Below are positions 7,472 to 32,000 of a stretch of DNA of 32,000 nt, in pieces. How positions within the stretch are numbered: position 1 is the first letter of the stretch; every line of letters begins with the position of its first letter. The translations under genes were made by a program, and so were the position numbers. The stretch lies in assembly GCA_964640155.1 (NCBI GenBank), contig CAZXEQ010000002.1, forward strand, positions 1-32,000, read 5' to 3'. The notes under the pieces are model-generated. The model was not told where the DNA came from. It saw only the letters and a list, made by a program, of their open reading frames with translations, and did not search any database. The stretch is from an uncultured bacterium. Lineage in GTDB: Bacteria; Auribacterota; JACPWU01.

Positions 7472-9139
7472 TTATCGATTTCTTGAAACTTTTTCCAATT
7501 TTCTGGCAAGGAAAAGAAAGAAGATTAAGCACAAAAGAGGTTCAAAATTAATCGGATGAGAATTCCCTGAAACCGGGCCAATGGTCCCACATCCTCCTCC
7601 TCCACCATCTCCTCCCCCTTTAATACTGCTGATGGTACTAAACCAAGTCTGTGCAATAATGCTATTTCCCGTAGCATTGAAATGAACATGGTCTACATAC
7701 AATGATCTAAAATCTGCTCTATCTCGAATAGCATTATAATTCTCCACCAGGCTAATACCTTTTCGCCCAGCCATAGCTCGAATCGCCGCGTTGGTATGTT
7801 TTACCTTTCCACTATGACCATCCAAACGAGGTGTAATGGTTGAAATAATGGGTCTAGTTCCAAAAGAAATAGAGCGATCTACCATTCGTTCTAAATTAAA
7901 TGTGATCGATTCTGGAGAGCGTTCATCACCACAATCGTTGGTCCCTTCCATCAGAAGAAGAAATTCCGCATTTGCACTATTGAGAGCACCGTTAATACGG
8001 TTTAGACCTGAGTTCGTTCTTTCTCCTCCTCGCCCTCGATTAACGACAGAAGAGCCAGGAAATCTACCATCCAGCAAACCTTGCAAATGGGGAGGATAAC
8101 CTCCTTGCGTAATACTATCTCCAAAAGCTAAATAAACATTGGGCTGCCCTGCGGCCCATGCTTCATTGATAGAAACATCAAAAAACTTCTTCAAACTCAA
8201 AAGAAGGCTCCCTGATGAACTTGCTGCAGAATCTCTGAGAAGAAGATGAATTGCACCTTTTTCTTGATTGTTGGTAAACCAAGCCCACTCAGTTCTTGAA
8301 ACACTTTGATTTTTCCAAACATCTAAAAATGTCGATTCAAGAGTCACCGAAGTTTCAACTGGACTAGTCCATGATTGCTCACTCCACTGGCTCAAAAACA
8401 CCTTTCCCCCCTGATAAAAAAGAAGAGCAGGATTTCCATTCTCAACTCTTAAAGAAGGAAACTCCACCGATGAATTTGGATCTTGAAAAAGAGCTATTTC
8501 TTCACCCCACTCTTTTCCATCCCATATTTTTTGAAAAAGTTGATATCCCTGACCATTAAAACCACTCCAAACCGCGCAAACTTTACCATCAAAAGCGAGA
8601 ATCGCAGGATCTATATCAGGACTTGCGTCTGGAAGATTAAGTTTTTCCCATCCAGACCAACCTGTAGATGTTTTTCGAATCCAGTAAATTTCATCATAAG
8701 CTCCTATATCGACTCCTTTTTCTTCGACGCCACTTGCCAAAATCCATGGCAGCCCTGCCTCATCCAATGTAATTGAAACTTGGGAAAAACGAACCCCTTG
8801 AAGATGACCTACTGTTTCTTCAGGTGACCATTCCATCCCATTCCATTTGGATAAAATGATTTCTTTGGCTTCATTTTTTTCTCTGACCCAAACAGCCCAA
8901 ACTTTTCCTTCTTGATCAACAGCGATAGAAGGAGAAGAATCTGGAGCCTGATTGCTTTGATGAAGACGTTCAGGTGTTGACCACTGTCCTGCCTTTTGAT
9001 GACTATAATAAATATCCAATTCTTCCCCTTCTGATCCAGCCCAGACCATCCATGAATCCTTCGGGGTGGCCTCTGCCCACATGTTTGAAGAACTTATCAA
9101 TATAAAAGCACCTATCAATAATCGTAAAAAACCTTTCAT
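7472..9139 (-). CDS. Secreted repeat-domain + SGNH/GDSL hydrolase with a Gly-rich, TM and basic C-terminal tail
   Basis: A signal peptide is present ('MKGFLRLLIGAFILISSSNMWAEA'). About five ~50-aa Trp-rich repeats follow ('P.IAvD..GkvWaVW......I..S.W.G..WS.PE'). All four SGNH blocks are intact: 'LAFGDSITQGG', 'GRGGERT', 'MEGTNDCG' and 'DHVHFNATG' (about nt 7640-8140). The tail reads 'GGGDGGGGGCG...INFEPLLCLIFFLFLARKLEKVSRNR'. Confidence 0.8.
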   Translation of the reverse strand: MKGFLRLLIGAFILISSSNMWAEATPKDSWMVWAGSEGEELDIYYSHQKAGQWSTPERLHQSNQAPDSSPSIAVDQEGKVWAVWVREKNEAKEIILSKWNGMEWSPEETVGHLQGVRFSQVSITLDEAGLPWILASGVEEKGVDIGAYDEIYWIRKTSTGWSGWEKLNLPDASPDIDPAILAFDGKVCAVWSGFNGQGYQLFQKIWDGKEWGEEIALFQDPNSSVEFPSLRVENGNPALLFYQGGKVFLSQWSEQSWTSPVETSVTLESTFLDVWKNQSVSRTEWAWFTNNQEKGAIHLLLRDSAASSSGSLLLSLKKFFDVSINEAWAAGQPNVYLAFGDSITQGGYPPHLQGLLDGRFPGSSVVNRGRGGERTNSGLNRINGALNSANAEFLLLMEGTNDCGDERSPESITFNLERMVDRSISFGTRPIISTITPRLDGHSGKVKHTNAAIRAMAGRKGISLVENYNAIRDRADFRSLYVDHVHFNATGNSIIAQTWFSTISSIKGGGDGGGGGCGTIGPVSGNSHPINFEPLLCLIFFLFLARKLEKVSRNR

Positions 9140-10080
9140 CCTATCTCCTCCTTAATCACATAAATAGATTTTTTCTGAGACTCGTGATACGTTCTGATTT
9201 GTATTTCTGCTAAAAGACCCATAGTAACGAATTGAAACCCCGTAAAAATCAGCAGCACTGCTAAAAGCAGAAGCGGCCGCCCCCCAATTGCTTGATTTAA
9301 GAACAGTCTTACAAAGGCCAGATAAAGACCAATGACGAAGCCTGCACCCCCCGTTAAAATTCCGAATAGACCAAAAATCTGAATGGGTTTTGTTGAATAA
9401 CTTAAAAGAAATTTAACAGTAATGAGATCCAATAGAACTCTGAACGTTCTGGAAATCCCATATTTGGATTTTCCTCGCTTTCGTTCTTGATGGCCGACTT
9501 TGACTTCTGAAACGGTCACCCCCATCCAACTCGCAATGGCAGGCAAAAAGCGATGCATTTCACCATACAATTCCAAATTTTTAGCTACTTCAGCTCGAAA
9601 AGCTTTCAGAGTACACCCATAATCATGGAGTTTTACTTTGGTTGTTAAAGAAATGAGGCCATTGGCAAGCATAGAAGGTAATCTTCGGTTAATAAAAGGA
9701 TCCCTTCGGGGATAGCGCCACCCACTGACAATATCAAAGCCCTCATTCACTTTATCTAATAATTTCCCAATATCGTTGGGATCATTCTGTAAGTCTCCAT
9801 CCAATGTAACAATAATTTTTCCACAACTTAGATCAAAACCTGCTTTCATCGCTGCCGTTTGACCAAAGTTCTTTCGAAATCGAACCAGGCGAATACGAGC
9901 ATCTTGCCCCTTGGCCTGTTTAAGGAACTCCCAGGTTCGATCTGTACTACCATCATCAATGAGAATAATCTCGTAAGAACACCCCAATTTATTTAAAGCC
10001 TCTTGAACACGAGGAATAAGCTCAGGGATATTCTCCTCTTCATTCATGAGAGGAATTACAACTGAAAGATCAAGATTCAA
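9136..10080 (-). CDS. Polyprenyl-phosphate glycosyltransferase, GT2 (GtrB/ArnC/DPM1-like)
   Basis: 'LSVVIPLMNEEENIPEL', 'IILIDDGSTDRT', 'RKNFGQTAAMKAGF' and 'LDGDLQNDPNDI' are followed by two C-terminal TM helices. The start is TTG at 10080, preceded by GGGAG 9 nt upstream. The stop overlaps the SGNH start as ATGA. Confidence 0.85.
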   Translation of the reverse strand: MNLDLSVVIPLMNEEENIPELIPRVQEALNKLGCSYEIILIDDGSTDRTWEFLKQAKGQDARIRLVRFRKNFGQTAAMKAGFDLSCGKIIVTLDGDLQNDPNDIGKLLDKVNEGFDIVSGWRYPRRDPFINRRLPSMLANGLISLTTKVKLHDYGCTLKAFRAEVAKNLELYGEMHRFLPAIASWMGVTVSEVKVGHQERKRGKSKYGISRTFRVLLDLITVKFLLSYSTKPIQIFGLFGILTGGAGFVIGLYLAFVRLFLNQAIGGRPLLLLAVLLIFTGFQFVTMGLLAEIQIRTYHESQKKSIYVIKEEIG

Positions 10081-10239
10081 GGCAAAAAACTCCCTTTTTG
10101 TTAAAAAAACAATCTACAAATTTTAGGTTAAATAGGCACCAGTTTATCATGAAATTCTCTAGATGGATAAAAAAAGATGATGTTTTTAGAAAAAATCGCA
10201 GGAAGGCAAATTTTATATAAAAACCCTTAAAAACATGAA

Positions 10240-10255
10240 AATTCTACATCATAAT
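10240..10255. repeat. Direct repeat copy 1 (AATTCTACATCATAAT)
   Basis: This 16-mer is identical to 10465-10480, and the copies start 225 bp apart. Confidence 0.9.
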
Positions 10256-10299
10256 CGTTCTATTCACATGCAACTGTTACAGTCGAGATGGTTATTCAT

Positions 10300-10434
10300 G
10301 TTCATTAGAGTGTAAGGACCATTGGAGCTCTCAGCCTCGCATGGTACCCCGATGTTTATCGGGGTGAGCGAGAGCTCCTTTGAGTTCATTTGACTCGCAG
10401 GGGCAAATGAACGTGTCCGAACGCTCTGATGAAC
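10300..10434 (+). ncRNA. Candidate structured RNA or mobile-element core (multi-helix junction, class not recognised)
   Basis: The outer helix pairs GTTCATTAGAGTG (10300-10312) with CGCTCTGATGAAC (10422-10434). Next come GGAC (10316-10319)/GTCC (10415-10418), then hairpin GGAGCTCTC (10324-10332)/GAGAGCTCC (10370-10378), which carries the apical CCCCGAT-GTTT-ATCGGGG (10347-10364). A second hairpin pairs GTTCATTTG (10384-10392) with CAAATGAAC (10404-10412). Two positions in the outer helix are G-U pairs on the plus strand but C-A mismatches on the minus strand, which weakly favours a plus-strand transcript. Confidence 0.35.
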
Positions 10435-10464
10435 AATACTTATAGGATAGGTCTGAGGCAGGGC

Positions 10465-10480
10465 AATTCTACATCATAAT
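10465..10480. repeat. Direct repeat copy 2 (AATTCTACATCATAAT), covering the last three codons and stop of the 1006-aa gene
   Basis: On the minus strand it reads ATT ATG ATG TAG AATT, which is ...I M M stop of the ORF 10469..13489. Confidence 0.9.
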
Positions 10481-13400
10481 TTCGAGATTTCCAACCTCAG
10501 CACGGTTATCCTTGTACTTTAAATTGGATTGAAGAATATTCCAACGCCTGCTACCCACCTCATACAAACCTATCTTGATCTGATAATTTTCTAAAGGGAT
10601 ATTCGTTGGAATAATCATTTTATGCTCTTTGATAAGGAACTGCCTATCCAAACCAAAGGAATGAACGTCTTTGCCTAAAAGCTTATGATCTGCCTGAAAA
10701 AATTCATTTTTGCTTTCAAAATGCAAAAAGACTGCAAGCTTGTCAGAAGCACGTTTATGATTTAATCTCCATAAAGATCTTATCCGTATTTCTTGTCCCC
10801 TCTTGCCAACACCAAGCGTAGATAAAGGCCAAACGATAGAGGGAACTTCCTCTATCTCTTGAGAATCCAACAACTGAAATCCTAATAATTGTGTCTCGTT
10901 CTCAAACTCAATCCAGCTTTTATCTTTCGAAGGAACGCTCTCAATCCAAAGCCTGCGCCGATCCTGTCTAGATTCATGAAATCTTCCTAATCTTTTTAAA
11001 GATCTAATTTTTCCTCGTCGGGCCTCTTCATGATAAGGATTATACAAAAGAGCTTTTTCATAATGAACAAGGGCGCTTTGAAAGTCCCTGGACAAAGATT
11101 TCTGCTTGGCTATATTTGCATGATTTAAACTACGTTTCGAATTAATATGAAGTAATCCAAATCCAATCCAAAAAAATCCCTTGCTATTCCCCAGAAAAGA
11201 CTGATGAGCAGAGGTCCATTCCTTAAAAGAAAATACTGCATGTCGTCCAAAAATTTTTTTCTCAAGTTCAAAACCAAACTCATGAATCATTCTAGAAAAA
11301 TAATTTTCATCTTCAATTGGAATAACAAAAGCTGTTTTAGGGCCAAAGTGAACAATCGGAGAAGGAATTCCTGCCATTCTGTAATGGGAATCTGTATAGG
11401 AAGGATATGTTTTTATTTTCCCCATTGTTTTATCTTTAATTTTTGCAGAAATCCATCGATCTGCATAGACAAAGTCAAAGGGATGGCTCATAAGATAATT
11501 CATCAAATCATCTATTTTCTCCATTGAAGACATTTCAAGGCCTAAAGGCTCATATATAAAGATTTCATTAATCCCCCAAAAAGAGCGATGTTCGCTTTTT
11601 TGAGAAAACCGGACGTATCTAGCCTGTACAGGAGAAAATCGAATTTCTAATCGATAAAGTTGAGCCCACGTGTAGAGGCGTGGTCCTGACCAATAGTAGC
11701 TTAAAACATTTTGTGAATGATCCAACTGGGCAATCTTTTCCCAATGAACTTGATCATGCGAGACTTCAACTTTAATATTTGAAGGATAAAACCGATGGTG
11801 TCCAGGTTGATGAAAAAGGCGAATCATTCCTAAAGAATGGGTTTGTCCTAAATCTAACTGAAAAGATTCTTCTTCTTTCGCTAAATTTTCACAAGTCCAT
11901 ACTGTATCTGATGAACGATCAAAGGCATGACCCCTCATTCTTGCATTTTCTGTCGTGGAAACCGTCCATTGATCAGTCAATATTTGTCGGTAAAGGGGCA
12001 AAGGTTCTTTGAAATCATAATAAATATGGAATCCTTCAACTTCTTTCAGACTGGCCGATCCTCCTAAATATTTAAGAGCTTCTTCAACCTCACGACTTGA
12101 ATACTTAAAGATAAAAGCCGGGTTGTCAGAATTCTCTACTTCATTCTGATAAGGATGATGCTTTTCCCCTTGAGGAGAGCAAAGGATGACCTTTTCATTC
12201 GATGCAAAGGTCATTCTGGGACCTAAAGAATATTCTACAATCCCCCTATTGATCCCCAACTTTAAAACAGTATCGGTTAGCTTTCTTACAGTCGCTTCTT
12301 TCACGCTTTCTATAGAATTTGATAAAACGTATCTCTGAAGGTTAGGAATCTGTAAGCCCATGAAGCTTGCCAATAAGAGGATCGGTGCCCATCTAGCCTT
12401 CCCTCCCAACCAGGCAAGAAAAACTCCCACAGTCATAGGGATGAGAGAAAATAAGGGAAGAAGATATCTTACAATACCCCGAAGACCCAATTGCGAACTA
12501 CTATAGATAAGTATGAAGAAAAGAAAAAATAGAAGAAGAATGGATGAGCCAGAAATATCCTTTCTGTAAAAACTGCCTAATTTAAGAAAATCCTTCCCTG
12601 CCTTTCCCAGAAAAAAAAGAAATGAAATGAGATAAAAAATAAGGATGCTCCAGAATAAAACGGAGAAATTTTTGTCCAGGTAAACTGCATCCAAAAAGGA
12701 TGGAATATCTTTTAGAAAGAGCTGAGAAAGCCCTTCTTTTAAATGATCAAATCTAAATCCTCCTGTAAAACCTCCTAATCCTTTACCATGTATCACATGA
12801 AAAATCCAAAAAGGCAAACTTCCAATAACAAAGCCTAGGAGACTCAAGATTCCATTCAAAAAAAATATTTTTGCTTTCTGTGTTAGAAGTATAAATACGG
12901 CTGCTGTAAGGATATAATAAATGGTTAAAGGACTTGTCCACCAGGAAAACCCTGCAGCCCAACCAACAAGAAAATATAGCAAGGTTCTCAATCTCTCAGA
13001 TTTTGTTTTTAAAAGATATACCGCAAGCAAAAGAACAAGACTTCCAAAAGTCAATGTCTCGATATATCCTCCCTGAGGATTAAGACCATAGTCCAACAGA
13101 AATCGCGGAGGGACAATACACCACGCAAGCGTCCATAGACCTACTTTCTTATTAAACAAGTTTGAACTCAATAAATACGTCACCAACATAAAGAGAGCAA
13201 AAAATGTTAATGGAGCGTAAGCCAATACCTTCGTGGAGATGCCAAACCAGTCAAAATAGACTGCACTCAGGAAAGATTCGATTGTTCCAAACCAATTTTG
13301 CCCATAGAAAAAAAAGGGAAACTCCCCTTTTAAAAAAATATTTCTTCCCATTAATGCAACCGTGTAATGATCTGGGCTAGACGTAACAGGACGTAATTCT

Positions 13401-13489
13401 AATAGAAGAAGGCGAAACAAAACGGCAATAAAAACTAAAATCAACGCAGTTATATCCAACCGATCTACATAAATTTTTTTAATTTTCAC
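10469..13489 (-). CDS. GT-C (ArnT/PMT-like, polyprenyl-phosphate-sugar dependent) membrane glycosyltransferase with internal discoidin (F5/8 type C) domain - paralogue 1
   Basis: The 1006-aa protein has an N-terminal ~400-aa polytopic region carrying 'GEFPFFFYGQNWFGTIES'. The discoidin-like block runs 'FDRSSDTVWTC...FQLDLGQTHSLGMIRLFH...VEVSHDQVHWEKI...ARYVRFSQ...INEIFIYE' (about nt 11545-11930). A TPR-like 'ALVHYEKALLYNPYHEEA' follows. The C-terminal module 'LAVFLHF...FQADHKLL...YQIKIGLYE' is common in GT39-type proteins. The start is GTG at 13489. Confidence 0.75.
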   Translation of the reverse strand: MKIKKIYVDRLDITALILVFIAVLFRLLLLELRPVTSSPDHYTVALMGRNIFLKGEFPFFFYGQNWFGTIESFLSAVYFDWFGISTKVLAYAPLTFFALFMLVTYLLSSNLFNKKVGLWTLAWCIVPPRFLLDYGLNPQGGYIETLTFGSLVLLLAVYLLKTKSERLRTLLYFLVGWAAGFSWWTSPLTIYYILTAAVFILLTQKAKIFFLNGILSLLGFVIGSLPFWIFHVIHGKGLGGFTGGFRFDHLKEGLSQLFLKDIPSFLDAVYLDKNFSVLFWSILIFYLISFLFFLGKAGKDFLKLGSFYRKDISGSSILLLFFLFFILIYSSSQLGLRGIVRYLLPLFSLIPMTVGVFLAWLGGKARWAPILLLASFMGLQIPNLQRYVLSNSIESVKEATVRKLTDTVLKLGINRGIVEYSLGPRMTFASNEKVILCSPQGEKHHPYQNEVENSDNPAFIFKYSSREVEEALKYLGGSASLKEVEGFHIYYDFKEPLPLYRQILTDQWTVSTTENARMRGHAFDRSSDTVWTCENLAKEEESFQLDLGQTHSLGMIRLFHQPGHHRFYPSNIKVEVSHDQVHWEKIAQLDHSQNVLSYYWSGPRLYTWAQLYRLEIRFSPVQARYVRFSQKSEHRSFWGINEIFIYEPLGLEMSSMEKIDDLMNYLMSHPFDFVYADRWISAKIKDKTMGKIKTYPSYTDSHYRMAGIPSPIVHFGPKTAFVIPIEDENYFSRMIHEFGFELEKKIFGRHAVFSFKEWTSAHQSFLGNSKGFFWIGFGLLHINSKRSLNHANIAKQKSLSRDFQSALVHYEKALLYNPYHEEARRGKIRSLKRLGRFHESRQDRRRLWIESVPSKDKSWIEFENETQLLGFQLLDSQEIEEVPSIVWPLSTLGVGKRGQEIRIRSLWRLNHKRASDKLAVFLHFESKNEFFQADHKLLGKDVHSFGLDRQFLIKEHKMIIPTNIPLENYQIKIGLYEVGSRRWNILQSNLKYKDNRAEVGNLEIMM

Positions 13490-13526
13490 AAGGAATTATC
13501 CAAAGCCAAATATTTAATTTTGAGCA

Positions 13527-14402
13527 TTAGATATAAATCAATGTCAAACAAATTACAAGCCACAAAAAAATATCTAGTTGAAGCGCAAAATCACAATATA
13601 AAACCTGCGTAGGATTATCCCCCATCTCTTTTTGATGAATCAGATAAAGATAACGGAAAATACCATAGATCACAAAAGGGACTGTAAAAATAAGTCGATC
13701 TGTTCCAAACCTCATCTGAACATCTCTAGAAACCGTGTAGAATGCGTACGTAACCACTGTCGCGCCTGTAATCACAGAAATCAAAGAGTCAATAAAGGTG
13801 ATACTATATTCTGAAAGTACGTGACGATGTTGTGATGCTACATGCTTTAAGATGACCATTTCTTGACGACGCTTACAAAGGGCCAAAAATAAGGCTAAGA
13901 GAAACGTGCAGAGCAAAAGCCAATTTGAAATATTCACATAAATCACAACACCTCCCGCAACAGCTCGTAACACAAAACCCATTGCAAGAAGCATCACATC
14001 TAATATCACAACACGTTTGAGACCAAAAGAATAAATCAATTGAATAAACCCATAACCAAGTAAAACAAACAAAGCACCTTTCCCAAGACCTAATCCCATA
14101 AGAAAAGAACCCATCAACAGAAGTCCCGAAAGAATACGTGCCGTTCTTTTAGAAACAGTTCCAGTAGCCAAAGGGCGAAAGCGTTTGGAAGGATGTTGTT
14201 GATCTTCTTTTAAATCCAAGAAATCATTCAAAATATAACAGGCACTGGATATCGCACAAAACGCAAAAAAAACAATGCAGACCCGAACAAAAGAAATTTG
14301 ATCAAAAAGCTGCTCTGAAAAAATTAATGCTGCAAAAACTAGCAGGTTTTTTATCCAGTGCTTAGGGCGTATGAGTTGAAACAAAGCTTTAAGATTCATC
14401 AT
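13527..14402 (-). CDS. UbiA-family polyprenyl-phosphate phosphoribosyltransferase (decaprenyl-phosphate 5-phosphoribosyltransferase/Rv3806c-like)
   Basis: The membrane protein has about 8-9 TM helices. It carries 'NDFLDLKEDQQHPSKRFRPLATG', which matches the NDxxDxxxD-x-HPxKxxRP[IL]AxG signature I recall for the DPPR-synthase subgroup. I prefer the ATG at 14402 (MMNLKALFQLIRPKHWIKN), which has AGGAAA 8 nt upstream. The track start at 14510 would overlap the upstream gene. Confidence 0.75.
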   Translation of the reverse strand: MMNLKALFQLIRPKHWIKNLLVFAALIFSEQLFDQISFVRVCIVFFAFCAISSACYILNDFLDLKEDQQHPSKRFRPLATGTVSKRTARILSGLLLMGSFLMGLGLGKGALFVLLGYGFIQLIYSFGLKRVVILDVMLLAMGFVLRAVAGGVVIYVNISNWLLLCTFLLALFLALCKRRQEMVILKHVASQHRHVLSEYSITFIDSLISVITGATVVTYAFYTVSRDVQMRFGTDRLIFTVPFVIYGIFRYLYLIHQKEMGDNPTQVLYCDFALQLDIFLWLVICLTLIYI

Positions 14403-14412
14403 CGCATGTTTC

Positions 14413-17352
14413 CTATTTCTTAACGCATATTTTGCCAATAATAGCTGCATTGTCTTTCTGTTCAAGAGATGTTTTTTTAATTTTAACGCGCTTACCAGTT
14501 CTAAGATCAAAAAGTCCTAATCTAATTTCGTATTCTCCTTCTGGCATATTTTCAGGGACTCTCAAGACCTCTTTTTCCCTAAAAACTTCTCCATCTAAAA
14601 CAGGCCACACATTTAAATTCCATTTTAAGAATTGATGATCCCCTTGAAAGATTTTAGAATTCTGAACAACATGAACAAAAACTCCCAGGCGACTCTTAGT
14701 ATCCTCCTTCAAAGACCAATAATATTGAGCCTGTGTTGGTTCTCCCGTAGATAGTTGATTGTTCCCAAATCGATATCCTAAAAATTTTATACCATTTGAG
14801 AATTCTACTTCGGCCTTGTTGAGGGGTTGTGTCTGGCGTTTCAAAATTTTTTCATGTTTAAACACTTTATCTTTTCTTCCCTGATTTTCTAAAAACTTAA
14901 TAAAGTAACGTCTGGTCGTTTGATTATTCTTATATTCTTGAAGAGATTTTTTATAAAAATGCTCAGCTTCTTTGCTTTTGCCCTCTGTTTCTTTTTTCTG
15001 AGCTAAACTTCTAAAATACTCACTTCTTTGCTTAGTATTGACCTTCACAACACCCAATCCCATCCACCACCAGCCAGGATCATCTCTCATCTGTTCTTCT
15101 TTCTCTTCCCATTGATCAAAATAAAATAACACCCACCTTTCAAAGTCTTCACGTTTAAGGAAACAACCTTCCTGACGCATCATTTTCTGAAATAAATCTG
15201 CATTATCTTTTTCCAAGACAAATCCCGTTTTGGACTCCCATTTAACAATTCTGGGGTTAAAATAGACTCTTTTTCTAGGAGAAGCAGATGTAAAAGGCTC
15301 TACTGTAGAGATGGTATTTGCAAACCGTTTTCGAATTTGTGCATTCATCCAACGATCTGAATAAATTCTGTTCAAACCTAAAGTTTTGATTCTTCTTAAT
15401 ACTTCTTCCTCTCCTTGACGACCGAGAGCAGAGGAAGAAATCCATTCATAGAGATAAGCCTCTGTAATAATCCACTCGGATCTGTTAGAGTTTTCAAATT
15501 GCCATATACGAATGTATCGAGCTTTCACAGGACCTAATCTCAATTCCCATCGATAGGCCCATTCCCAAGGATAAATCCTAGGCCCACTCCAATAAAAAAA
15601 TCCCCCTTCTGTTTGAGGACCTACCTTCAACCAAGTCTTTCCATCTTGACTCACTTCAGCTAAAGAAATATATGGAAAGCCCGCATGATACCACCCTTTA
15701 TTCCATAAACGCAGCATTCCTAAGGTATAGTCCTTTCCCAAATCAAACTGAACCCACATCCCAGATTTCTTAAGAGCTCCAGATGTCCAAGCCGTTTCCA
15801 TATTCCGATCAAGCACATTTTTCATTTCATCGCCATAATCAGAAGCTGTCGCCTTTATTTTAATCGGATTGATTTGCCTATACTGCGCCTGAGGCTCCAC
15901 AAAGTTATAAGTAATCTGATACTCTCCTACTTGATCTGTTTGACAAGTGCCACCAATCTGTTTTAGTGCTTTTTCTACTTCAGGATTTGAAATAAAAGCA
16001 GGCCGATCTGTTTCATTTAGCAAATGCATATAGGGATCATATCGCCCATTTTGGCGAGTAGCACAAATCACATCTTCATTTGATAAAAAGTTTATTTCCA
16101 TGCACCCCAAAGCATAATCAGCATAAATATATTGTAAGTTCTTAGACTTAAGATAATCAATCAAGCTCATCAGTTGAGTTGTTCTCACACATGCAGCAGG
16201 AACGTCTTTTGTTACCAGCTCCCAAATAAAAAAACCTTGGGCAAATAAATAGAGAATATAAAGAGCCAGCATTATTTTCTTCAAAAATTGTTTGGCCGCT
16301 AGAACCACAAAAGAGCATGCAATGGGGAAAAAGGAATAAAGCGCTATGACATAATGATCTTTCGGACGTCTTGCTTGAAAACTGGTAGAAAAAATGAGAA
16401 CTGTCGCCAAAAGAAGAAACACCAGGAGATAGGCTTCAGAATGTCTTGCCTTTATAAAATAATAAATCGTTACAAAAATTAAAAATGCCGCTACCACCCA
16501 AACAGCCCAGTTTCCAAATCTCTCATATCGAAATACATCCATAAGCTTGGGAGCTGCTGCAAAAAAAAAGCCATGCAACCCATTGAATAATCTATTCCAA
16601 TGGAACCCCTGTCCCATATTCAAAATTGAAGAGAAAGGATCTTTCGCATAATAATAAAAAAAAGGCCATCCACCTACAAAAAAAGAAGGGAGGGCAAACA
16701 AAAGTCCATATTTGATAGCCCTCATTCTTTCATAAAGGACCAGATACACCATAATAGGTAAAAAATAATACATCAACAAAGGACTTGCCCACCAAGCAAG
16801 ACCTCCTGTCACTCCTAGGGAAAGATAAAGCAATTTTTTATTTTTTTTAGAATCACTTTTCCGAATTCGAATGGCAATCCAAAGCACCAAACTTCCAAGG
16901 GTTGGGGTTTCAAGATAATGCGTATGTGGGACCAAACTATATTTCGTTAAAAGTAAAGGGGCGCAAAAGCACCATAAAACGGCTCCCACCCCTACCTTTT
17001 CATTGTGCGCATCTCTGCCGATCAGATAGGTGAGCATGCAAAAAAGAAAAAAAAAGAAAAGTGTTACCAAACGCAAGGGCCATGCATAAACTCCAAAAAA
17101 ATAAAAAGAAACAGCGTAAAGCAAAGATTCCAAACCCCCAAACCAGTTTTGTCCCATAAAGAAAAAAGGAAATTCCCCTCTTTCAAGGGCATGCTTCCCC
17201 ATCAAAGCTGTAACAGCAAGATCTGAGTCTACAAAACCTGGGAAAAGCTTTAAGGTAAAGGGACATTGCAATCCAATGACAAAACGAATAGCAACAGCCA
17301 GAACAATGATGAGAAGAGAGATATATTCATATTTTGAAGTTTTATACTTCAT
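14413..17352 (-). CDS. GT-C membrane glycosyltransferase with internal discoidin domain - paralogue 2
   Basis: It has the same architecture as paralogue 1 and long identical blocks with paralogue 3 ('GEFPFFFMGQNWFGGLES', 'VPHTHYLETPTLGSLVLW', 'PQAQYRQI', 'VLDRNMETAWTS', 'LGMLRLWN', 'YWSGPRIYPWEW', 'LRLGPVKARYIRI'). The discoidin block lies at about nt 15445-15830. I prefer the ATG at 17352 (AAGGA 7 nt upstream) to the TTG at 17367. Confidence 0.75.
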   Translation of the reverse strand: MKYKTSKYEYISLLIIVLAVAIRFVIGLQCPFTLKLFPGFVDSDLAVTALMGKHALERGEFPFFFMGQNWFGGLESLLYAVSFYFFGVYAWPLRLVTLFFFFLFCMLTYLIGRDAHNEKVGVGAVLWCFCAPLLLTKYSLVPHTHYLETPTLGSLVLWIAIRIRKSDSKKNKKLLYLSLGVTGGLAWWASPLLMYYFLPIMVYLVLYERMRAIKYGLLFALPSFFVGGWPFFYYYAKDPFSSILNMGQGFHWNRLFNGLHGFFFAAAPKLMDVFRYERFGNWAVWVVAAFLIFVTIYYFIKARHSEAYLLVFLLLATVLIFSTSFQARRPKDHYVIALYSFFPIACSFVVLAAKQFLKKIMLALYILYLFAQGFFIWELVTKDVPAACVRTTQLMSLIDYLKSKNLQYIYADYALGCMEINFLSNEDVICATRQNGRYDPYMHLLNETDRPAFISNPEVEKALKQIGGTCQTDQVGEYQITYNFVEPQAQYRQINPIKIKATASDYGDEMKNVLDRNMETAWTSGALKKSGMWVQFDLGKDYTLGMLRLWNKGWYHAGFPYISLAEVSQDGKTWLKVGPQTEGGFFYWSGPRIYPWEWAYRWELRLGPVKARYIRIWQFENSNRSEWIITEAYLYEWISSSALGRQGEEEVLRRIKTLGLNRIYSDRWMNAQIRKRFANTISTVEPFTSASPRKRVYFNPRIVKWESKTGFVLEKDNADLFQKMMRQEGCFLKREDFERWVLFYFDQWEEKEEQMRDDPGWWWMGLGVVKVNTKQRSEYFRSLAQKKETEGKSKEAEHFYKKSLQEYKNNQTTRRYFIKFLENQGRKDKVFKHEKILKRQTQPLNKAEVEFSNGIKFLGYRFGNNQLSTGEPTQAQYYWSLKEDTKSRLGVFVHVVQNSKIFQGDHQFLKWNLNVWPVLDGEVFREKEVLRVPENMPEGEYEIRLGLFDLRTGKRVKIKKTSLEQKDNAAIIGKICVKK

Positions 17353-17373
17353 CCTGATATCCTTCAAGAAATA

Positions 17374-20300
17374 TTATTCTCTAATTTTGATGGAGCCAAT
17401 AAAAACACCTTTATGTTCTACTTTGAGAGAAGTATTCTTTATTTTTCGGCGTTTACCATTTTCTAAATTAAAAAGACCTAAGTAAATTTGATATTCTCCG
17501 GCAGGAGTATCTACTGGTATTTGAATAAATTCTTTCTGTCGAAAAACTTCTCCTTCCACGCAAGGCCATATATAAAGATGCCGATTCAAAAAACTGTGAT
17601 CTCCTTGAAATAATTTTCCTTGGCCCTTAACATGAACAAAAACAGCCATGTTATTTCCAGGATTTTCTTTAAGTCTCCAATAATACTGAATAGCAATTTT
17701 TTGACCTGCCTTGACACCTGTAACAGAAGCAGAAACAGGGTAAAGGGTGTACCCTAAAAACTCTATCCCCCTTTCAAATTCAACAAAAGCGGAATAATGC
17801 GGTTTTATCCGCTTTAAAAGGTGGCTTTCTTCTTCACGAGCTTCTTTTTCTTGCCCCCTTCTTTTTAAAACGTTTATTTTCCCTTCCCTGGCCTTCACTT
17901 GATTCGGATAACTTTTCAAAGCCTTTTGATAATATTTGAGAGCTTTCTCAAAATGTCCCTCTTCTTCAAATTTGCTTGCCTTCATTCTTAATTGCTCGCT
18001 ATAAGCCTTATTATTAACACCCACAACTCCCAGTCCCATCCAATACCAGCCTAAGTTTGATTTTAACTTTTCTTCATTTTCACTCCACTTTGGAAAATAA
18101 AATAAAACCCAACGAGAAAAATTTTTTCTTGCAAGATGAATCTCTTGCTTTTCAATTGTCTTTTCAAATTCATCTGCATCGGCATCTTCCAAAATAAAAC
18201 CTATCTTTGGACCCCATGTCACCAATCGACCTGGTAGACGAACAGTATCTTTTTTATCGGTAAGACTAAAAGGTTCTATTGTTTGAATGGTTCCATTACT
18301 TATCTTTCTAATCTGAGAACTCATCCAGCGATCAGCATAAACTTTTTCTAATTTTAAAGCTTTCACAGTTGAAAAAAGTTCTTGTTCCCCCGAGGCAGCA
18401 AAACTTTCTTCCTTTATCTGCTCATAAAAATATACTTCGCTGATACGCCAGTCCAAACGACTTGAAGAATCATGCTGTACAACACGCACAAATCTGGCTT
18501 CAACAGGCCCTAGACGAAGCTCCTGACGATAAGACCATTCCCAGGGATAAATTCTTGGTCCACTCCAGTAATAGAAATCACAAGGTTTGGGCTGAAGAAC
18601 TTGCGTCCATTGATGTCCATCCAAACTTACTTCTACACTTAAATGGGCAGAAAAATAAGGATGCAATTCTCCCCGATTCCATAACCTGAGCATACCCAAA
18701 GAACAGGGTCTACCTAAATCAAACTGAATCCACATCCCCACTTGTCTAGCAATGACACTGCTCCAACTCGATTCCATATTACGATCCAAAACCTTTTTTG
18801 CTTGTCTAGATTCATGAGAAGAAGCCGTCTTAATCTTCTCAGGTGATATCTGACGATACTGAGCCTGAGGCTCTCGAAAATTATAATAGACATGGAATCG
18901 ACCCTCCTGATAACTTTGACACTGTCCCCCAATCATCCCAAAAATATTCTCAAAAACACCGGATCTATTTTCAATGAAAGCAGGATAAGGACTTTCATCT
19001 AAAAGAAGTTCGTAAGGTCGATACCTCTCTTGAGTAGGTGTCGCGCAAATCACTTCTTCTTTCGCCATAAATGTAATATCTGCAGCCCCAGAAGAAGCAT
19101 CAAATCGATAATCCATATACGCATGCTGAATCCCGTGCTTTTTTAGAAAATCGATAAGCTTTAGCTTTTCCACAGCTTCTGCTTGATAACCAGGAACTTC
19201 CTTAGATAACCAATCCCAAACAAAAAAACTTTGCCCAGCGCAATAAAACAAGGCCAATGCAACCGTTAACCATCTCCAATGCTTACGTACTTGCCATACA
19301 GCATAACCAAACACAATAGGGACAAGAGAATAAAGAGCAATCACATAGCGAGGTCTAAAACGTCGAATGGCATCATGGCTAGAACAACATACGACAACAA
19401 TTCCTAAGAGGAGAAACATCAAAATCCCACGAGCATGGCTCAATGGCAATATTTTTTTGCGAAGTCCGGCCGGTAAAAATGGGAGATCTTTTAAAAAAGA
19501 ATAAAAAAGATAAAAAAAATCTTTCATATTTGAAGACAAGAAGCGTAAAAAAATATACACGTAAAATAAAGCAATCGCTATAAAAGCCCACATTCCAAAG
19601 TGCTTATACTTGGGAATATCTAAAAGCTCTGGCCCTGTTGCTAATAATAAGTTTTTAAAACCTACAGGGAAATAGACAAAAGAAAATTTGCCTCCCATTC
19701 CTAAAACACTAGAATAAGGATCCATGGCATAATAAATAAAATAAGGAGCTCCTCCGATAAAAAAAGCAGGTAAACTCAAGAGAATTCCCCATTTCACCGC
19801 TTCCCAACGTAATCTGAAGAACATGAAACCCGCAATACCCAAAAGATAATAAATCATCATCGGGCTCACCCACCATCCCAGCCCACCAAAAAACCCTAAC
19901 ACAAAATATAGAAATCTTCGTACCTTCATTGAAGTGGAGAGAGTAAGTCTAATCGCAAGCCAAATAATCAAACTTCCCAACACCGGGGTTTCCAAATAAT
20001 GCGTATGTGGAACTACGCTCAATTGAGTTAAATAAACTGGTGCAAACACGCACCAAAGAAGTGCTACCAGTGCAACACCATCATTAAAAAGATCTCTGGC
20101 AATGAGAAAAGTCAAAATACAAAAAAAAGCAAACAGAAAAAGAGGGGCAACACGCATCGCCCACGGAGTGACGCCAAAAATCCAGAAGGCAACCCCATGA
20201 AGCATCGCCTCTAGCCCCCCAAACCAATTCTGCCCCCAAAAGAAAAATGGAAACTCTCCCAACTCCAATGCATGCTTTGACATTAACCCAATAATGCCTA

Positions 20301-20448
20301 AGTTATTGACAACGCATGTGTGTGCTAAATAAGTACTATCGGGACCTAATAAAGAAATAAAAAATCTAATGCTGACTGCAATGATCAGAAAGAGAAAGAA
20401 AAAGAGAAGAGTAAGCGGCTTTTCAAATTTTAAAGATAATATTTTCAT
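17374..20448 (-). CDS. GT-C membrane glycosyltransferase with internal discoidin domain - paralogue 3
   Basis: The architecture matches the other two ('GEFPFFFWGQNWFGGLEA', 'VPHTHYLETPVLGSLIIW', 'VLDRNMESSWSS', 'LGMLRLWN', 'YWSGPRIYPWEW', 'LRLGPVEARFVRV'). The discoidin block lies at about nt 18420-18800. I prefer the ATG at 20448 (MKILSLKFEKPL...), because the track start at 20526 would overlap the upstream gene by 59 nt. Confidence 0.75.
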   Translation of the reverse strand: MKILSLKFEKPLTLLFFFLFLIIAVSIRFFISLLGPDSTYLAHTCVVNNLGIIGLMSKHALELGEFPFFFWGQNWFGGLEAMLHGVAFWIFGVTPWAMRVAPLFLFAFFCILTFLIARDLFNDGVALVALLWCVFAPVYLTQLSVVPHTHYLETPVLGSLIIWLAIRLTLSTSMKVRRFLYFVLGFFGGLGWWVSPMMIYYLLGIAGFMFFRLRWEAVKWGILLSLPAFFIGGAPYFIYYAMDPYSSVLGMGGKFSFVYFPVGFKNLLLATGPELLDIPKYKHFGMWAFIAIALFYVYIFLRFLSSNMKDFFYLFYSFLKDLPFLPAGLRKKILPLSHARGILMFLLLGIVVVCCSSHDAIRRFRPRYVIALYSLVPIVFGYAVWQVRKHWRWLTVALALFYCAGQSFFVWDWLSKEVPGYQAEAVEKLKLIDFLKKHGIQHAYMDYRFDASSGAADITFMAKEEVICATPTQERYRPYELLLDESPYPAFIENRSGVFENIFGMIGGQCQSYQEGRFHVYYNFREPQAQYRQISPEKIKTASSHESRQAKKVLDRNMESSWSSVIARQVGMWIQFDLGRPCSLGMLRLWNRGELHPYFSAHLSVEVSLDGHQWTQVLQPKPCDFYYWSGPRIYPWEWSYRQELRLGPVEARFVRVVQHDSSSRLDWRISEVYFYEQIKEESFAASGEQELFSTVKALKLEKVYADRWMSSQIRKISNGTIQTIEPFSLTDKKDTVRLPGRLVTWGPKIGFILEDADADEFEKTIEKQEIHLARKNFSRWVLFYFPKWSENEEKLKSNLGWYWMGLGVVGVNNKAYSEQLRMKASKFEEEGHFEKALKYYQKALKSYPNQVKAREGKINVLKRRGQEKEAREEESHLLKRIKPHYSAFVEFERGIEFLGYTLYPVSASVTGVKAGQKIAIQYYWRLKENPGNNMAVFVHVKGQGKLFQGDHSFLNRHLYIWPCVEGEVFRQKEFIQIPVDTPAGEYQIYLGLFNLENGKRRKIKNTSLKVEHKGVFIGSIKIRE

Positions 20449-20467
20449 GATATATATTTCTTCTATC

Positions 20468-21451
20468 TCAAGAAATTTTAGAGAAAGTTTCTTTTTCTCT
20501 CCCCAAAAAATAGAATACTCCCCCAATTAAATTACCAATGGTTGTTGTTACTCTGCTAGCCAAAGCCAAAAGGAGGGCATCTGTTTTACTTAATCCTACC
20601 AGAGGGAAAAGAAGTACATAAAGACCCTCCAAGATACCAATAGCATCTACCGAAATAGGGATTCTAGCTATAAAATAAATAAAAGGGATCACCATAAAAT
20701 AATTTAAAGCAGAGCCTGGCAATTCAAAAGCTCTCGCCAAAACAAAAGTAGAAATAAAAGGAACAAACTGTTCAAAAAAAGAGAGAATAAAAAAAGCCAA
20801 CATGGCTTTGGGATAGTATCTAAATTGTTGATAGGAAGAAACAACATTGCCTAGCTTTTTAAAAAATTTTCCTTTAAATCTATCTGATTTTGAGCGAGGC
20901 AAATAATAAAGAGAGCCCACAAAAAAAACACTTACCGTGATTAAAAAGAATAAAATAAAATAAAAATATTTCCAATAAATCTCTGAGAAATTTTGTATAA
21001 GCAAAAATGAACAAATACACACCAACAACAACATCGCAAATAGGCCTAAGACTTTTTCAACAACAATACTGGCTGCAATTTTTTCTCTTTCTCCTTCTCG
21101 CACAGAGAAACTCATGAGACGCATCACATCGGACCCCACACTGGTAGGAAGTACCAGTCCCAATAAAGAAGCCATAAAATAAGAGCGTATACAACTCAAG
21201 AAAGAAGCCCGAATACTTTGAGCCCTGAGAAGGATCATCCATTTTGCTCCCATCCAGATGCGATCGATAAGAACAATTGTTATGGCAAGTAGTATAAAAC
21301 TTAGATGAGCTCGAGATAAAACACGAGAAAACTCTTGATAATCAACAAGCGTCAAAAGGTATATGAGAAGGCAAAGCCCAACAGCCCAACGGAAGATGGA
21401 GGATCTATGAATTGACATGGGATATAGGATATAGTTTTTGATGTCAAGCAT
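20468..21451 (-). CDS. UPF0104/LPG-synthase-TM (MprF flippase-domain-like) membrane protein
   Basis: The 327-aa protein has about 8 TM helices. 'LRAQSIRASFLSCIRSYFMASLLGLVLPTSVGSDVMRL' resembles the family's conserved 'lP...G.d..R' loop. An alternative start exists at 21418 (MSIHRS...). Confidence 0.6.
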   Translation of the reverse strand: MLDIKNYILYPMSIHRSSIFRWAVGLCLLIYLLTLVDYQEFSRVLSRAHLSFILLAITIVLIDRIWMGAKWMILLRAQSIRASFLSCIRSYFMASLLGLVLPTSVGSDVMRLMSFSVREGEREKIAASIVVEKVLGLFAMLLLVCICSFLLIQNFSEIYWKYFYFILFFLITVSVFFVGSLYYLPRSKSDRFKGKFFKKLGNVVSSYQQFRYYPKAMLAFFILSFFEQFVPFISTFVLARAFELPGSALNYFMVIPFIYFIARIPISVDAIGILEGLYVLLFPLVGLSKTDALLLALASRVTTTIGNLIGGVFYFLGREKETFSKIS

Positions 21452-31033: not shown

Positions 31034-32000
31034 TCATTGTATCTGAGTTTGTCCAATTTGTGCAAAATACTGATCTAAAAAAACAAGTCTTTTCTTAATC
31101 CATTCTCTCATTTTATTCACAAAATCTTCTCGCGTTTCTGTCGTGGGAGAAGGCCATATTTCAAAATTTCTTTTGACACGATACTTCACCTTTTCATCAA
31201 TTTCATCCATCCTCTTCATTAAGGCGTCTTCAGAAAGAATATCTTTTCTTAACTCCTGCCATCGCTTATATAGATTTTGATTATAACCTGGGAGCACCTT
31301 CATCAATCTATTAAACAAATCATTGGTAACAATCCGGGTTTCCTCTCTCCCAAAACTTTTGTCATAGTCCCATGGCACCAGAAAAAATAAATCCTCAGTC
31401 CCATTGTTCCTCGCAATGAAAAGGTTATGATTGGGACCATCCATTTGATTTACAAAATTAAGCAATATTTGAAAATCCATCACATTATTGATATCCATAA
31501 CTTGATGGACCTTTTTTTTGAATTCCTCGTCCGAAGAGTTTCCTAAAAAAAGAATCAATTCTTCATAAGGAGCCCAATATTCTCCAAACTTTAAATGAGG
31601 TTCCTTTTGCACATAAGCTTCTTTTGCTAGACGGGAAAAACTAGCCGTTCTATTTTCTGCTTTATAAATAACACTGTGCCTGGCATCCCCTTCACGATAA
31701 GGTTCTAATTGCAGTAAATCTATTTCGATATCATTTTCAAACTCGTAAATCCCCTGGAATTCATGATCAATAAAAAGCTCTATAAGAGAGTGATGCGGAG
31801 CATATCGAGGATTCTGAATGGTAGAGAAACTCCTGAAAAGATCATAGGCCATTTGATTTCTCATAAAGGAAAGATCAATGTAACTCCCCATTAAAACCAA
31901 TTCATCCGCATGAGTCCCTAAAAGATCATGAAAGCGTTCCATACAAATTTTGTAAGATTTTTTAGGATAATTAAGCGCCGTATTACCATGGAGTTTGGTT
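31034..32000 (-). CDS. CotH kinase-family protein, 5'-truncated at the window edge (paralogue of the C-terminal half of 27437..30316)
   Basis: The reading frame stays open upstream of the track Met at 31942 up to the window end. That extension translates as '...TKLHGNTALNYPKKSYKIC', which aligns with 'IRLQGNSALGFPKKSYKIRLG' of the neighbouring CotH. The downstream blocks are collinear ('FIDHEFQGIYEFEND', 'HNLFIARNNG', 'LVPWDYDKSFG', 'REWIKKRLVFLDQYF'). Confidence 0.75.
   Translation of the reverse strand, partial: TKLHGNTALNYPKKSYKICMERFHDLLGTHADELVLMGSYIDLSFMRNQMAYDLFRSFSTIQNPRYAPHHSLIELFIDHEFQGIYEFENDIEIDLLQLEPYREGDARHSVIYKAENRTASFSRLAKEAYVQKEPHLKFGEYWAPYEELILFLGNSSDEEFKKKVHQVMDINNVMDFQILLNFVNQMDGPNHNLFIARNNGTEDLFFLVPWDYDKSFGREETRIVTNDLFNRLMKVLPGYNQNLYKRWQELRKDILSEDALMKRMDEIDEKVKYRVKRNFEIWPSPTTETREDFVNKMREWIKKRLVFLDQYFAQIGQTQIQ

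Follow-up and report, generated by a model that had tools for sequence, protein, structure and literature searches.

Several kinds of insertion duplicate their target, with 14–15 bp for casposon/Cas1-type integration, 7–20 bp for the retroposition of eukaryotic short interspersed nuclear elements (SINEs), and long duplications for some insertion sequence (IS) families. On the RNA side, similar cases include the orphan or trans-acting small RNAs (sRNAs) derived from riboswitches and paralogous sRNA families, e.g., Listeria SreA/SreB and AspocR, an antisense RNA controlled by a B12 riboswitch, which we take as resemblances only. The locus described here lies in a 32,000-nt stretch of DNA from an uncultured bacterium of the Candidatus Auribacterota (assembly GCA_964640155.1, contig CAZXEQ010000002.1, positions 1–32,000; hereafter “the window”), in which an initial annotation had pointed to a GC-rich, multi-helix element bracketed by a 16-bp direct repeat at the 3′ end of a gene encoding a 1006-amino-acid (aa) protein. 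Overall, the element is very probably a real, conserved and selected structured element. The best reading that we can offer of the whole locus, to which we would give about an even chance, is a new structured regulatory RNA family of which the window copy was inserted with a 16-bp target duplication.

Folding recovers the architecture that had been proposed from the letters alone, namely a GC-rich core closed by an outer 13-bp helix (P1), followed by a 4-bp helix (P2) and a three-way junction from which two hairpins emerge (P3 and P4), the first of them topped by an apical 7-bp stem (P3b; Table 1). On the plus strand, the segment 10240–10480 has a minimum free energy (MFE) of −88.9 kcal/mol (z = −6.1), with none of 200 shuffled sequences folding as well. 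GC content reaches 48% across the 209 nt between the repeats and 51% across the 137-nt core, compared with 37% in the window. When the GTDB species representatives were searched for exact matches to 20 nt of the P4 loop, a single one was obtained, in a Candidatus Auribacterota metagenome-assembled genome (MAG; JAYRIK010000162.1, locus L005). There the element occupies the spacer that separates two divergent genes, one for an lpxA-like acyltransferase and one of the LOG/TIGR00730 family, and is oriented as the LOG gene, ending ~50 nt before its ATG.

This homologue adopts the same architecture (z = −6.0), and all 47 consensus pairs of the pairwise alignment are standard in both sequences. Double (compensatory) changes affect seven pairs, five of them in P1, one in P2 (G-C vs. 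A-U) and one in P3 (C-G vs. A-U), and two further pairs switch between G-U and Watson-Crick. Within P1, 7 of the 13 aligned pairs differ between the copies and all are still paired. When the 3′ partners were slid by 1–3 columns as a control, pairing fell to 35–48% and only 0–1 double changes were left. A 39-nt block reaching from the end of P3 through P4 is identical at both loci, and the sole similarity that the copies share outside P1 is a short 3′ motif, UACUU(R)UA, similarity of the flanks past P1 not being significant (p = 0.25–0.5). A homologue from another genome and another context that keeps every pair, with seven compensatory changes, gives strong support to the structured non-coding RNA that the initial annotation had listed among its possibilities.

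Two candidate tertiary or alternative pairings, both invariant, were also noted within the core: CUCGC of the P4 loop (10394–10398) with GCGAG at the P3 base (10368–10372), and ACCAU of J2/3 (10318–10322) with AUGGU of the P3 internal loop (10341–10345). In the homologue, G-A and A-G mismatches stand in place of the two P3 pairs that would compete with the CUCGC-GCGAG pairing. In the window copy, P1 and P4 share their start, GTTCATTNGA (10300–10309 and 10384–10393), and their end, ATGAAC (10407–10412 and 10429–10434), P1 of the homologue sharing only GTTC...GAAC.

Table 1. Coordinates of the repeat, promoter-like and structural features at the element (positions within the window).
Feature	Position	Strand	Description
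Direct repeat copy 1, AATTCTACATCATAAT	10240..10255		In spacer, 160 nt upstream of the GT2 (family-2 glycosyltransferase) start
Direct repeat copy 2	10465..10480		3′ end of the 1006-aa gene: final three codons (I-M-M), then TAG
Putative inserted DNA between repeats	10256..10464	+	209 nt = 43-nt leader + 137-nt core + 29-nt tail
Promoter-like TTAAAA-17-CATAAT	10227..10255	+	Consensus match only; −10 (CATAAT) = last six bases of repeat copy 1
Promoter-like TTGGAA-17-TAGAAT	10466..10494	-	Consensus match only; −10 (TAGAAT) in repeat copy 2, overlaps end of the 1006-aa gene
Conserved structured core	10299..10435	+	P1, P2, three-way junction with P3/P3b and P4; homologous to L005:3740-3873(-)
P1	10299-10311 with 10423-10435	+	13 bp; 15 bp in window copy (10299-10313 with 10421-10435)
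P2	10316-10319 (GGAC) with 10415-10418 (GUCC)	+	4 bp
P3	10324-10332 with 10370-10378	+	9 bp; conserved internal loop GCAUGGU / AGC
P3b	10347-10353 with 10358-10364	+	Apical 7-bp hairpin on P3; tetraloop variable
P4	10384-10392 with 10404-10412	+	Perfect 9-bp hairpin, 11-nt loop, small apical extension
Identical block CTCCTTTGAGTTCATTTGACTCGCAGGGGCAAATGAACG	10375..10413	+	39 nt: P3 end, J3/4 (UUUGA), whole P4 hairpin (10384-10412)
3′ tail motif TACTTATA	10437..10444	+	Homologue reads TACTTGTA

Further traces of the element come from the source metagenome. In run SRR8893623, one Logan contig matches the window without a difference and stops at 10412, the end of P4, and a second contig of the same run starts with P4, continues through LOG-type 3′ arms of P2 and P1, and then enters a LOG gene that shares 96% identity with its L005 counterpart. 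Both contigs break within the shared P4 block, a stretch of 39 shared nucleotides being what disrupts an assembly graph with k = 31. The source organism may therefore have two copies or more, with one at the LOG locus (the orthologue of L005) and another at the glycan locus of the window, the contigs not being provably of one genome. Between L005 and L007, 95 of 96 nt are identical over a stretch that takes in the 3′ half of the element, the tail and the spacer as far as the start of LOG, while coding identity is 89.3% for LOG and 90.9% for the neighboring HAD gene, with 84 of the 108 LOG differences at third codon positions. By our own arithmetic, ~10 differences would be expected in 96 nt at the overall coding rate and ~24 at the third-position rate, where one was observed. 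As this stretch is far more conserved than its coding flanks, the sequence comparison indicates purifying selection on the LOG-locus copy.

A covariance model built from the two copies detected no further or degenerate copy in the window (filters off) or in ~190 kb of related loci (L001–L015), and plasmid, phage and viral collections gave no match, including four viral-contig scans and a distant blastn search against plasmids and phages. Relatives with LOG proteins at 76% or 72% identity have no element in their lpxA-LOG spacers, and it is equally absent from the GT2 locus of the sister MAG and others. Of the further copies for which the initial annotation had proposed a search, one was found in the source metagenome and one in L005, and none in these other collections. 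In metagenomes, a degenerate P4 pattern matched nothing but a coding region, by chance (L006). Conservation of the element as a mere part of the glycan cluster was rejected as well, since the 1006-aa protein shares no more than 41% identity with its database homologues, at whose loci neither gap nor element follows the gene. The equivalent spacers of distant relatives (L009, 8855–9143; L013, 7535–8000) carry other palindromic or nested-hairpin sequences, such as GTAGTCGCCCCATTTATGGGGCTGCCCGATGAATCGGGCGACTAC upstream of GT2 in L013, which are not homologous to the element by covariance model.

Known RNA families did not account for the element, in agreement with the initial annotation, which had recognized none. 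Covariance models from Rfam 15 gave no match at the gathering threshold across the whole window and, at E ≤10, only noise at both copies, from families that differed between the two loci (STnc150 at 16 bits vs. a threshold of 60; C/D-box snoRNAs at 12–18 bits vs. 38–60), and ARAGORN detected no tRNA or tmRNA gene in the window. A hammerhead ribozyme was discarded, as CUGAUGA in the 3′ arm of P1 (10421–10435) reads CUUAGGA in the homologue and no Rfam hammerhead appeared at E ≤10; the UGAUGA motif that had suggested a C/D box is likewise not kept. The arms GTTCAT...ATGAAC and GTTCTCC...GGAGAAC are opposite in polarity to the RYYYAAC...GTTRRRY of an integron attC site, and no integrase is present. 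Retron msr/msd, IS200/605 omega RNA and IS110 bridge RNA were set aside, with no adjoining gene for a reverse transcriptase, TnpB/IscB or DEDD recombinase; the genes beside the copies are glycosyltransferases in the window and lpxA, LOG and HAD in L005. Small open reading frames (ORFs) within the element (MVP...) keep, on inspection, neither frame nor length between the copies. The literature found on Auribacterota, and on TIGR00730 together with riboswitches, says nothing of RNA elements. This structured, RNA-like element thus appears not to have been described previously, and has so far been found only in two closely related Auribacterota genomes.

The repeat around the window copy is real and not a chance match. 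The 16-mer AATTCTACATCATAAT occurs in two exact copies, with no third match at up to two mismatches, and shuffled sequence held on average 0.05 matches, none of 100 shuffles reaching two or more. It is the sole exact repeat of at least 14 nt with copies <500 nt apart in the window, and the extreme of the window's own distribution of k-mers shared from flank to flank (150-nt flanks compared along the window). The exact-match scan and ORF map also confirm that the second copy holds the last three codons and stop of the 1006-aa gene, whose ORF occupies 10469..13489 on the minus strand, its TAG read as CTA at 10469–10471. The C-terminus of this protein aligns at the same end position as two tandem paralogues and database homologues, and the gene end is thus intact and in its ancestral place. 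All large ORFs around the element are on the minus strand, the next gene, GT2, starting at 10080 after a spacer (10081–10468) that at 388 nt is the longest of the window. Between the repeats, the 209-nt segment has neither terminal inverted repeats (TIRs) nor an ORF of at least 50 aa.

A GT2 orthologue (95% identical) in the same Auribacterota MAG (JAYRIK010000213.1, L011), with gene order kept on both sides, provides a sister locus for comparison. A blastn alignment of the window to this contig is colinear over 19750–13526, a range that takes in UbiA, and resumes at 10110 with GT2, and the window's 13525–10111, i.e., the 1006-aa gene, both repeats, the element and ~130 nt of spacer, has been exchanged as a block of ~3.4 kb, one breakpoint coinciding exactly with the stop codon of UbiA and the other lying ~30 nt ahead of the start of GT2. 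Its counterpart in L011 (6218–7974) consists of an unrelated 532-aa multi-pass protein gene without Pfam match and a 158-nt spacer, and an unrelated 532-aa gene likewise precedes the GT2 orthologue in Logan contig L012. The element is therefore absent from the sister glycan locus, but the site there is not a clean empty one, the whole block having been replaced; an empty allele would join ...CTCGAAATTATGATGTAGAATT directly to TTCATGTTTTTAAGG and be exactly 225 bp shorter. Three features speak for a discrete insertion, namely a 16-bp duplication without a mismatch, a gene end left intact and 209 nt of foreign-looking, GC-rich content between the copies, and we lean slightly toward an insertion with target duplication.

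The unrelated 532-aa gene of L011 also ends in ...TATGATGTAA / ...TATATGATGTAATTC (7826–7846; M-M-stop), and so shares the 9-mer TATGATGTA with the 16-mer of the window at an equivalent gene-end position, in surroundings that cannot be aligned and on which aligners disagree. This sharing may be due to chance, or may mark a conserved boundary or promoter box.

Among the alternatives, the one that survives best, while still unlikely in our view, holds that the segment is a non-autonomous mobile DNA element, either MITE-like (miniature inverted-repeat transposable element) or an integrative remnant flanked by attachment (att) sites, whose fold serves no RNA function; P1 would then represent terminal inverted repeats or recombinase sites, and its covariation the co-evolution of these ends with an enzyme. 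A perfect 16-bp direct repeat over a gene 3′ end is indeed what integrases often leave, and P1 covariation alone cannot discriminate between matched inverted repeats and a helix of RNA. The element occurs more than once, in differing contexts, and is missing both from the sister glycan locus and from the LOG locus of distant relatives and, in the window, lies within a swapped, variable segment of the glycan cluster. However, the conservation is the reverse of a MITE pattern, with P1 ends that differ at 7/13 pairs around a near-invariant interior including the 39 identical nucleotides, and the internal helices P2 and P3 have compensatory changes of their own. The direct repeats stand 43 and 29 nt away from P1, the DNA just inside them forms no inverted repeat, no short duplication abuts P1 in either copy, and no repeat surrounds the LOG-locus copy. 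Neither the window (ORFs of at least 120 aa) nor L005 encodes an integrase, transposase or reverse transcriptase. Collections of plasmids, phages and viruses gave no match, and the LOG-locus copy is syntenic in two genomes, at 99% conservation vs. 90% for coding DNA. Of the mobile-element footprint suggested by the initial annotation (att-like or a very long target duplication), there remain a genuine 16-bp duplication, the absence at the sister locus and the presence of more than one copy in the source metagenome, but not repeats at the other copy or adjoining the fold, terminal inverted repeats, mobility genes or a true empty site.

Strand preference bears on the next alternative. Consensus folding (alifold) gave −61.7 for the plus and −48.9 for the minus strand, single-sequence energies were −75.0 and −65.8 (plus) vs. 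−60.3 and −59.3 (minus), and the minus strand of 10240–10480 reached an MFE of −72.8 (z = −4.0). Two U-G pairs in P1 of the window copy and a conserved U-G pair in the P4 apex also favor the plus strand, as the initial annotation had argued from G-U pairs, and an RNA would thus probably be made from this strand, judging by the folding models. The plus-strand promoter-like sequence of the window could start such a transcript ~37 nt before P1, while that of the minus strand would transcribe the antisense strand of the element toward the GT2 operon. In L005, an extended −10 (TGATATAAT) lies on the sense strand 33 nt upstream of P1, and a separate promoter-like site for lpxA falls outside the element, in the interval that leads to lpxA. 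Given this extended −10, the lack of a terminator and the separate lpxA site, the element is plausibly a leader of the LOG mRNA.

Read on the plus strand, one of the two loci (that of the LOG gene) has the element at a leader position, whereas on the minus strand both loci precede envelope genes, with a weaker fold. The functional RNA might thus be the minus strand, acting as a cis-regulatory leader in the 5′ untranslated region of the GT2-GDSL-DUF2079 operon and of lpxA, a reading that we consider improbable. In no other orientation are both copies followed by a gene on their own strand, both genes being linked to envelope glycolipid or glycan, and in the window the minus-strand promoter-like sequence TTGGAA-17-TAGAAT is found just upstream of the element. 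The minus strand also folds better than shuffled sequences (z = −4.0), and the A-C position of the homologue becomes G-U on it. Yet consensus and single-sequence energies favor the plus strand by 6–15 kcal/mol, and the two U-G pairs of P1 and the conserved U-G of the P4 apex would turn into A-C mismatches. The only lpxA promoter-like site in L005 lies past the element, so that the lpxA mRNA would exclude it, and the spacers to the start codons (219 vs. ~70 nt) show no similarity; finally, the agreement in orientation had a prior chance of 1 in 2, the L005 site lying between divergent genes.

Equally improbable is that the 16-bp repeat had no part in the arrival of the element, being instead a duplicated regulatory box or a by-product of the segment swap that carried the element along, a reading consistent with the exchange of the whole 13525–10111 stretch as a block without sister-genome counterpart, with CATAAT (+) and TAGAAT (−) both falling in the repeat and with the 9-mer shared by the L011 gene end ...TATGATGTAA, but opposed by an exact 16-mer longer than any promoter box needs, by the disagreement of two alignment methods on that 9-mer amid DNA that is not alignable, and by the lack of an evident mechanism for an exact 16-bp duplication flanking 209 nt of foreign DNA other than a staggered-cut insertion or site-specific recombination.

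We therefore return to the reading of an inserted regulatory RNA, in which the core would be one copy of a lineage-specific structured RNA family absent from Rfam, made from the plus strand of the window. The invariant junction and loops may bind a ligand, a protein or another RNA, P1 needing only to pair, a pattern known from aptamer-like and protein-binding regulatory RNAs. The ancestral site would be the leader of the LOG-family (TIGR00730) nucleotide-metabolism gene, and the window copy a secondary orphan, i.e., a 209-nt DNA that would have entered over the stop codon of the 1006-aa gene and, through a staggered cut, duplicated 16 bp of its target. Its transcript would be antisense to the 3′ end of the 1006-aa gene and to a read-through or GT2-operon leader transcript. 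A role as leader or aptamer-like regulator is possible, though less likely than not. It is tempting to speculate further on a mobile sensing RNA, a ligand- or protein-sensing class traveling as a ~200-nt unit without TIRs and making 16-bp duplications, through SINE-like, RNA-mediated retro-insertion or an unlinked staggered-cutting integrase, with orphan copies acting in trans or as antisense; this we hold to be less probable than any of the alternatives above.

Several observations weigh against this interpretation. The comparison includes two full sequences and one partial one, and the covariation check proposed at the outset, supportive as it is of the helices, amounts to one pairwise comparison with a single homologue in which five of the seven double changes fall in P1. 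On the opposite strand, an A-C position of the homologue would read as G-U, the promoter-like matches are weak (9/12), and no terminator-like site follows either copy. The plus-strand copy of the window has no downstream gene, and a purely cis-acting leader therefore cannot fit both copies. No true empty site was recovered, the L011 glycan locus being devoid of the element by covariance model but occupied by an unrelated gene, and no flanking repeat above background surrounds the LOG-locus copy of L005. Lastly, neither P1 nor the flanks of the window copy bear any relation to their LOG-locus counterparts. The window copy is thus not a recent copy of the one at the LOG locus, and the perfect 16-bp duplication therefore calls for a recent arrival from an unseen donor copy.

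The neighborhood of the element is a glycan/envelope cluster, with UbiA, LPG-synthase-like, GT2, GDSL esterase and DUF2079 genes, CotH kinases and a two-component system. Three tandem paralogues (1006, 984 and 1050 aa), membrane proteins with F5/8 type C domains, occupy 10469–20526, interleaved with UbiA, the 1006-aa one being the third of these GT-C-like proteins. Two CotH-kinase-domain paralogues (27437–30316 and 31034–31942) share a 145-nt stretch at 75% identity, with exact 18-mers at a spacing of 3603 nt. For GT2, the longest ORF (314 aa) starts from TTG at 10080, while the database form is of 303 aa (96% of the query covered); orthologues of 316 aa support the longer form (region 10047–10080). 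A second, unrelated GC-rich structured element lies at 1715–1850, in the spacer (1647–1922) between a beta-helix protein gene and dcd, and consists of a perfect 19-bp AT-rich outer stem (GTATATAAAAGTGTGTCCT / AGGACACACTTTTATATAC) around a GC-rich core (plus-strand MFE −77.2, z = −9.2); it has no Rfam match, no flanking direct repeat and no homologue in the related loci retrieved.

If confirmed, the element would add one more family to the known structured RNAs, and would do so from Candidatus Auribacterota, an uncultivated phylum close to the Planctomycetes–Verrucomicrobia–Chlamydiae (PVC) group that has hardly been studied. The comparative signal is of a P1 that varies and is nonetheless always paired, next to an invariant junction and P4 loop, and the position in front of a LOG gene makes the element a candidate for a new regulatory aptamer. 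A perfect 16-bp duplication around an orphan copy, in a swapped glycan segment, would be an unusual footprint for a small RNA gene, and could show how small RNAs get copied to new loci. We regard the element as a solid lead rather than a discovery, the comparative evidence being solid but narrow (two genomes).

Compared with described systems, the element shares with MITEs, Correia/NEMIS, ERIC, RUP and RPE repeats its size (~100–200 bp), intergenic location, stable fold, occurrence in more than one copy and, once, a direct-repeat flank. It departs from them in that the ends vary and the interior is kept, that the 16-bp repeat does not adjoin an inverted repeat, and that approximately two copies are known, one of them syntenic and under purifying selection; at least two diverged copies in the source metagenome and one exact P4 match among the GTDB representatives make up the count. 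A classical MITE was rejected, as P1 is not conserved among the copies, no short duplication abuts either and the segment termini are not inverted repeats. With att-site duplications at gene 3′ ends and the remnants known as cis-mobilizable elements (CIMEs), it has in common a direct repeat by which the target gene regains its final codons and stop, but only 209 bp separate the repeats here, the other copy has none, and no cognate integrase or recombinase was found among the window ORFs of at least 120 aa or in L005. The likeness to casposon/Cas1 integration, long-duplication IS families and SINEs is one of duplication length only, by analogy, the locus having no TIRs, Cas1, transposase, reverse transcriptase or A-tail.

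Among RNAs, what the present candidate, predicted from sequence, would share with SreA/SreB and AspocR is a structured regulatory RNA that stands alone or faces a convergent gene, and paralogous copies with a conserved core. The element differs from riboswitches by the lack of an Rfam riboswitch match and of a recognizable expression platform or terminator, by a second copy without downstream gene and by its occurrence in two genomes. Yet as in riboswitch aptamers and three-way-junction leaders (purine, thiamine pyrophosphate, tetrahydrofolate), P1 covaries freely around a near-invariant junction and loops, the length is ~100–140 nt, one copy takes the leader position of a LOG/TIGR00730 gene, and an internal CUCCUUU resembling an anti-Shine-Dalgarno sequence is paired to GGAG. 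What the two loci have in common is thus what would be expected of a conserved, structured aptamer, i.e., covarying helices (47/47 pairs kept, 7 of them compensatory) with invariant junctions and loops.

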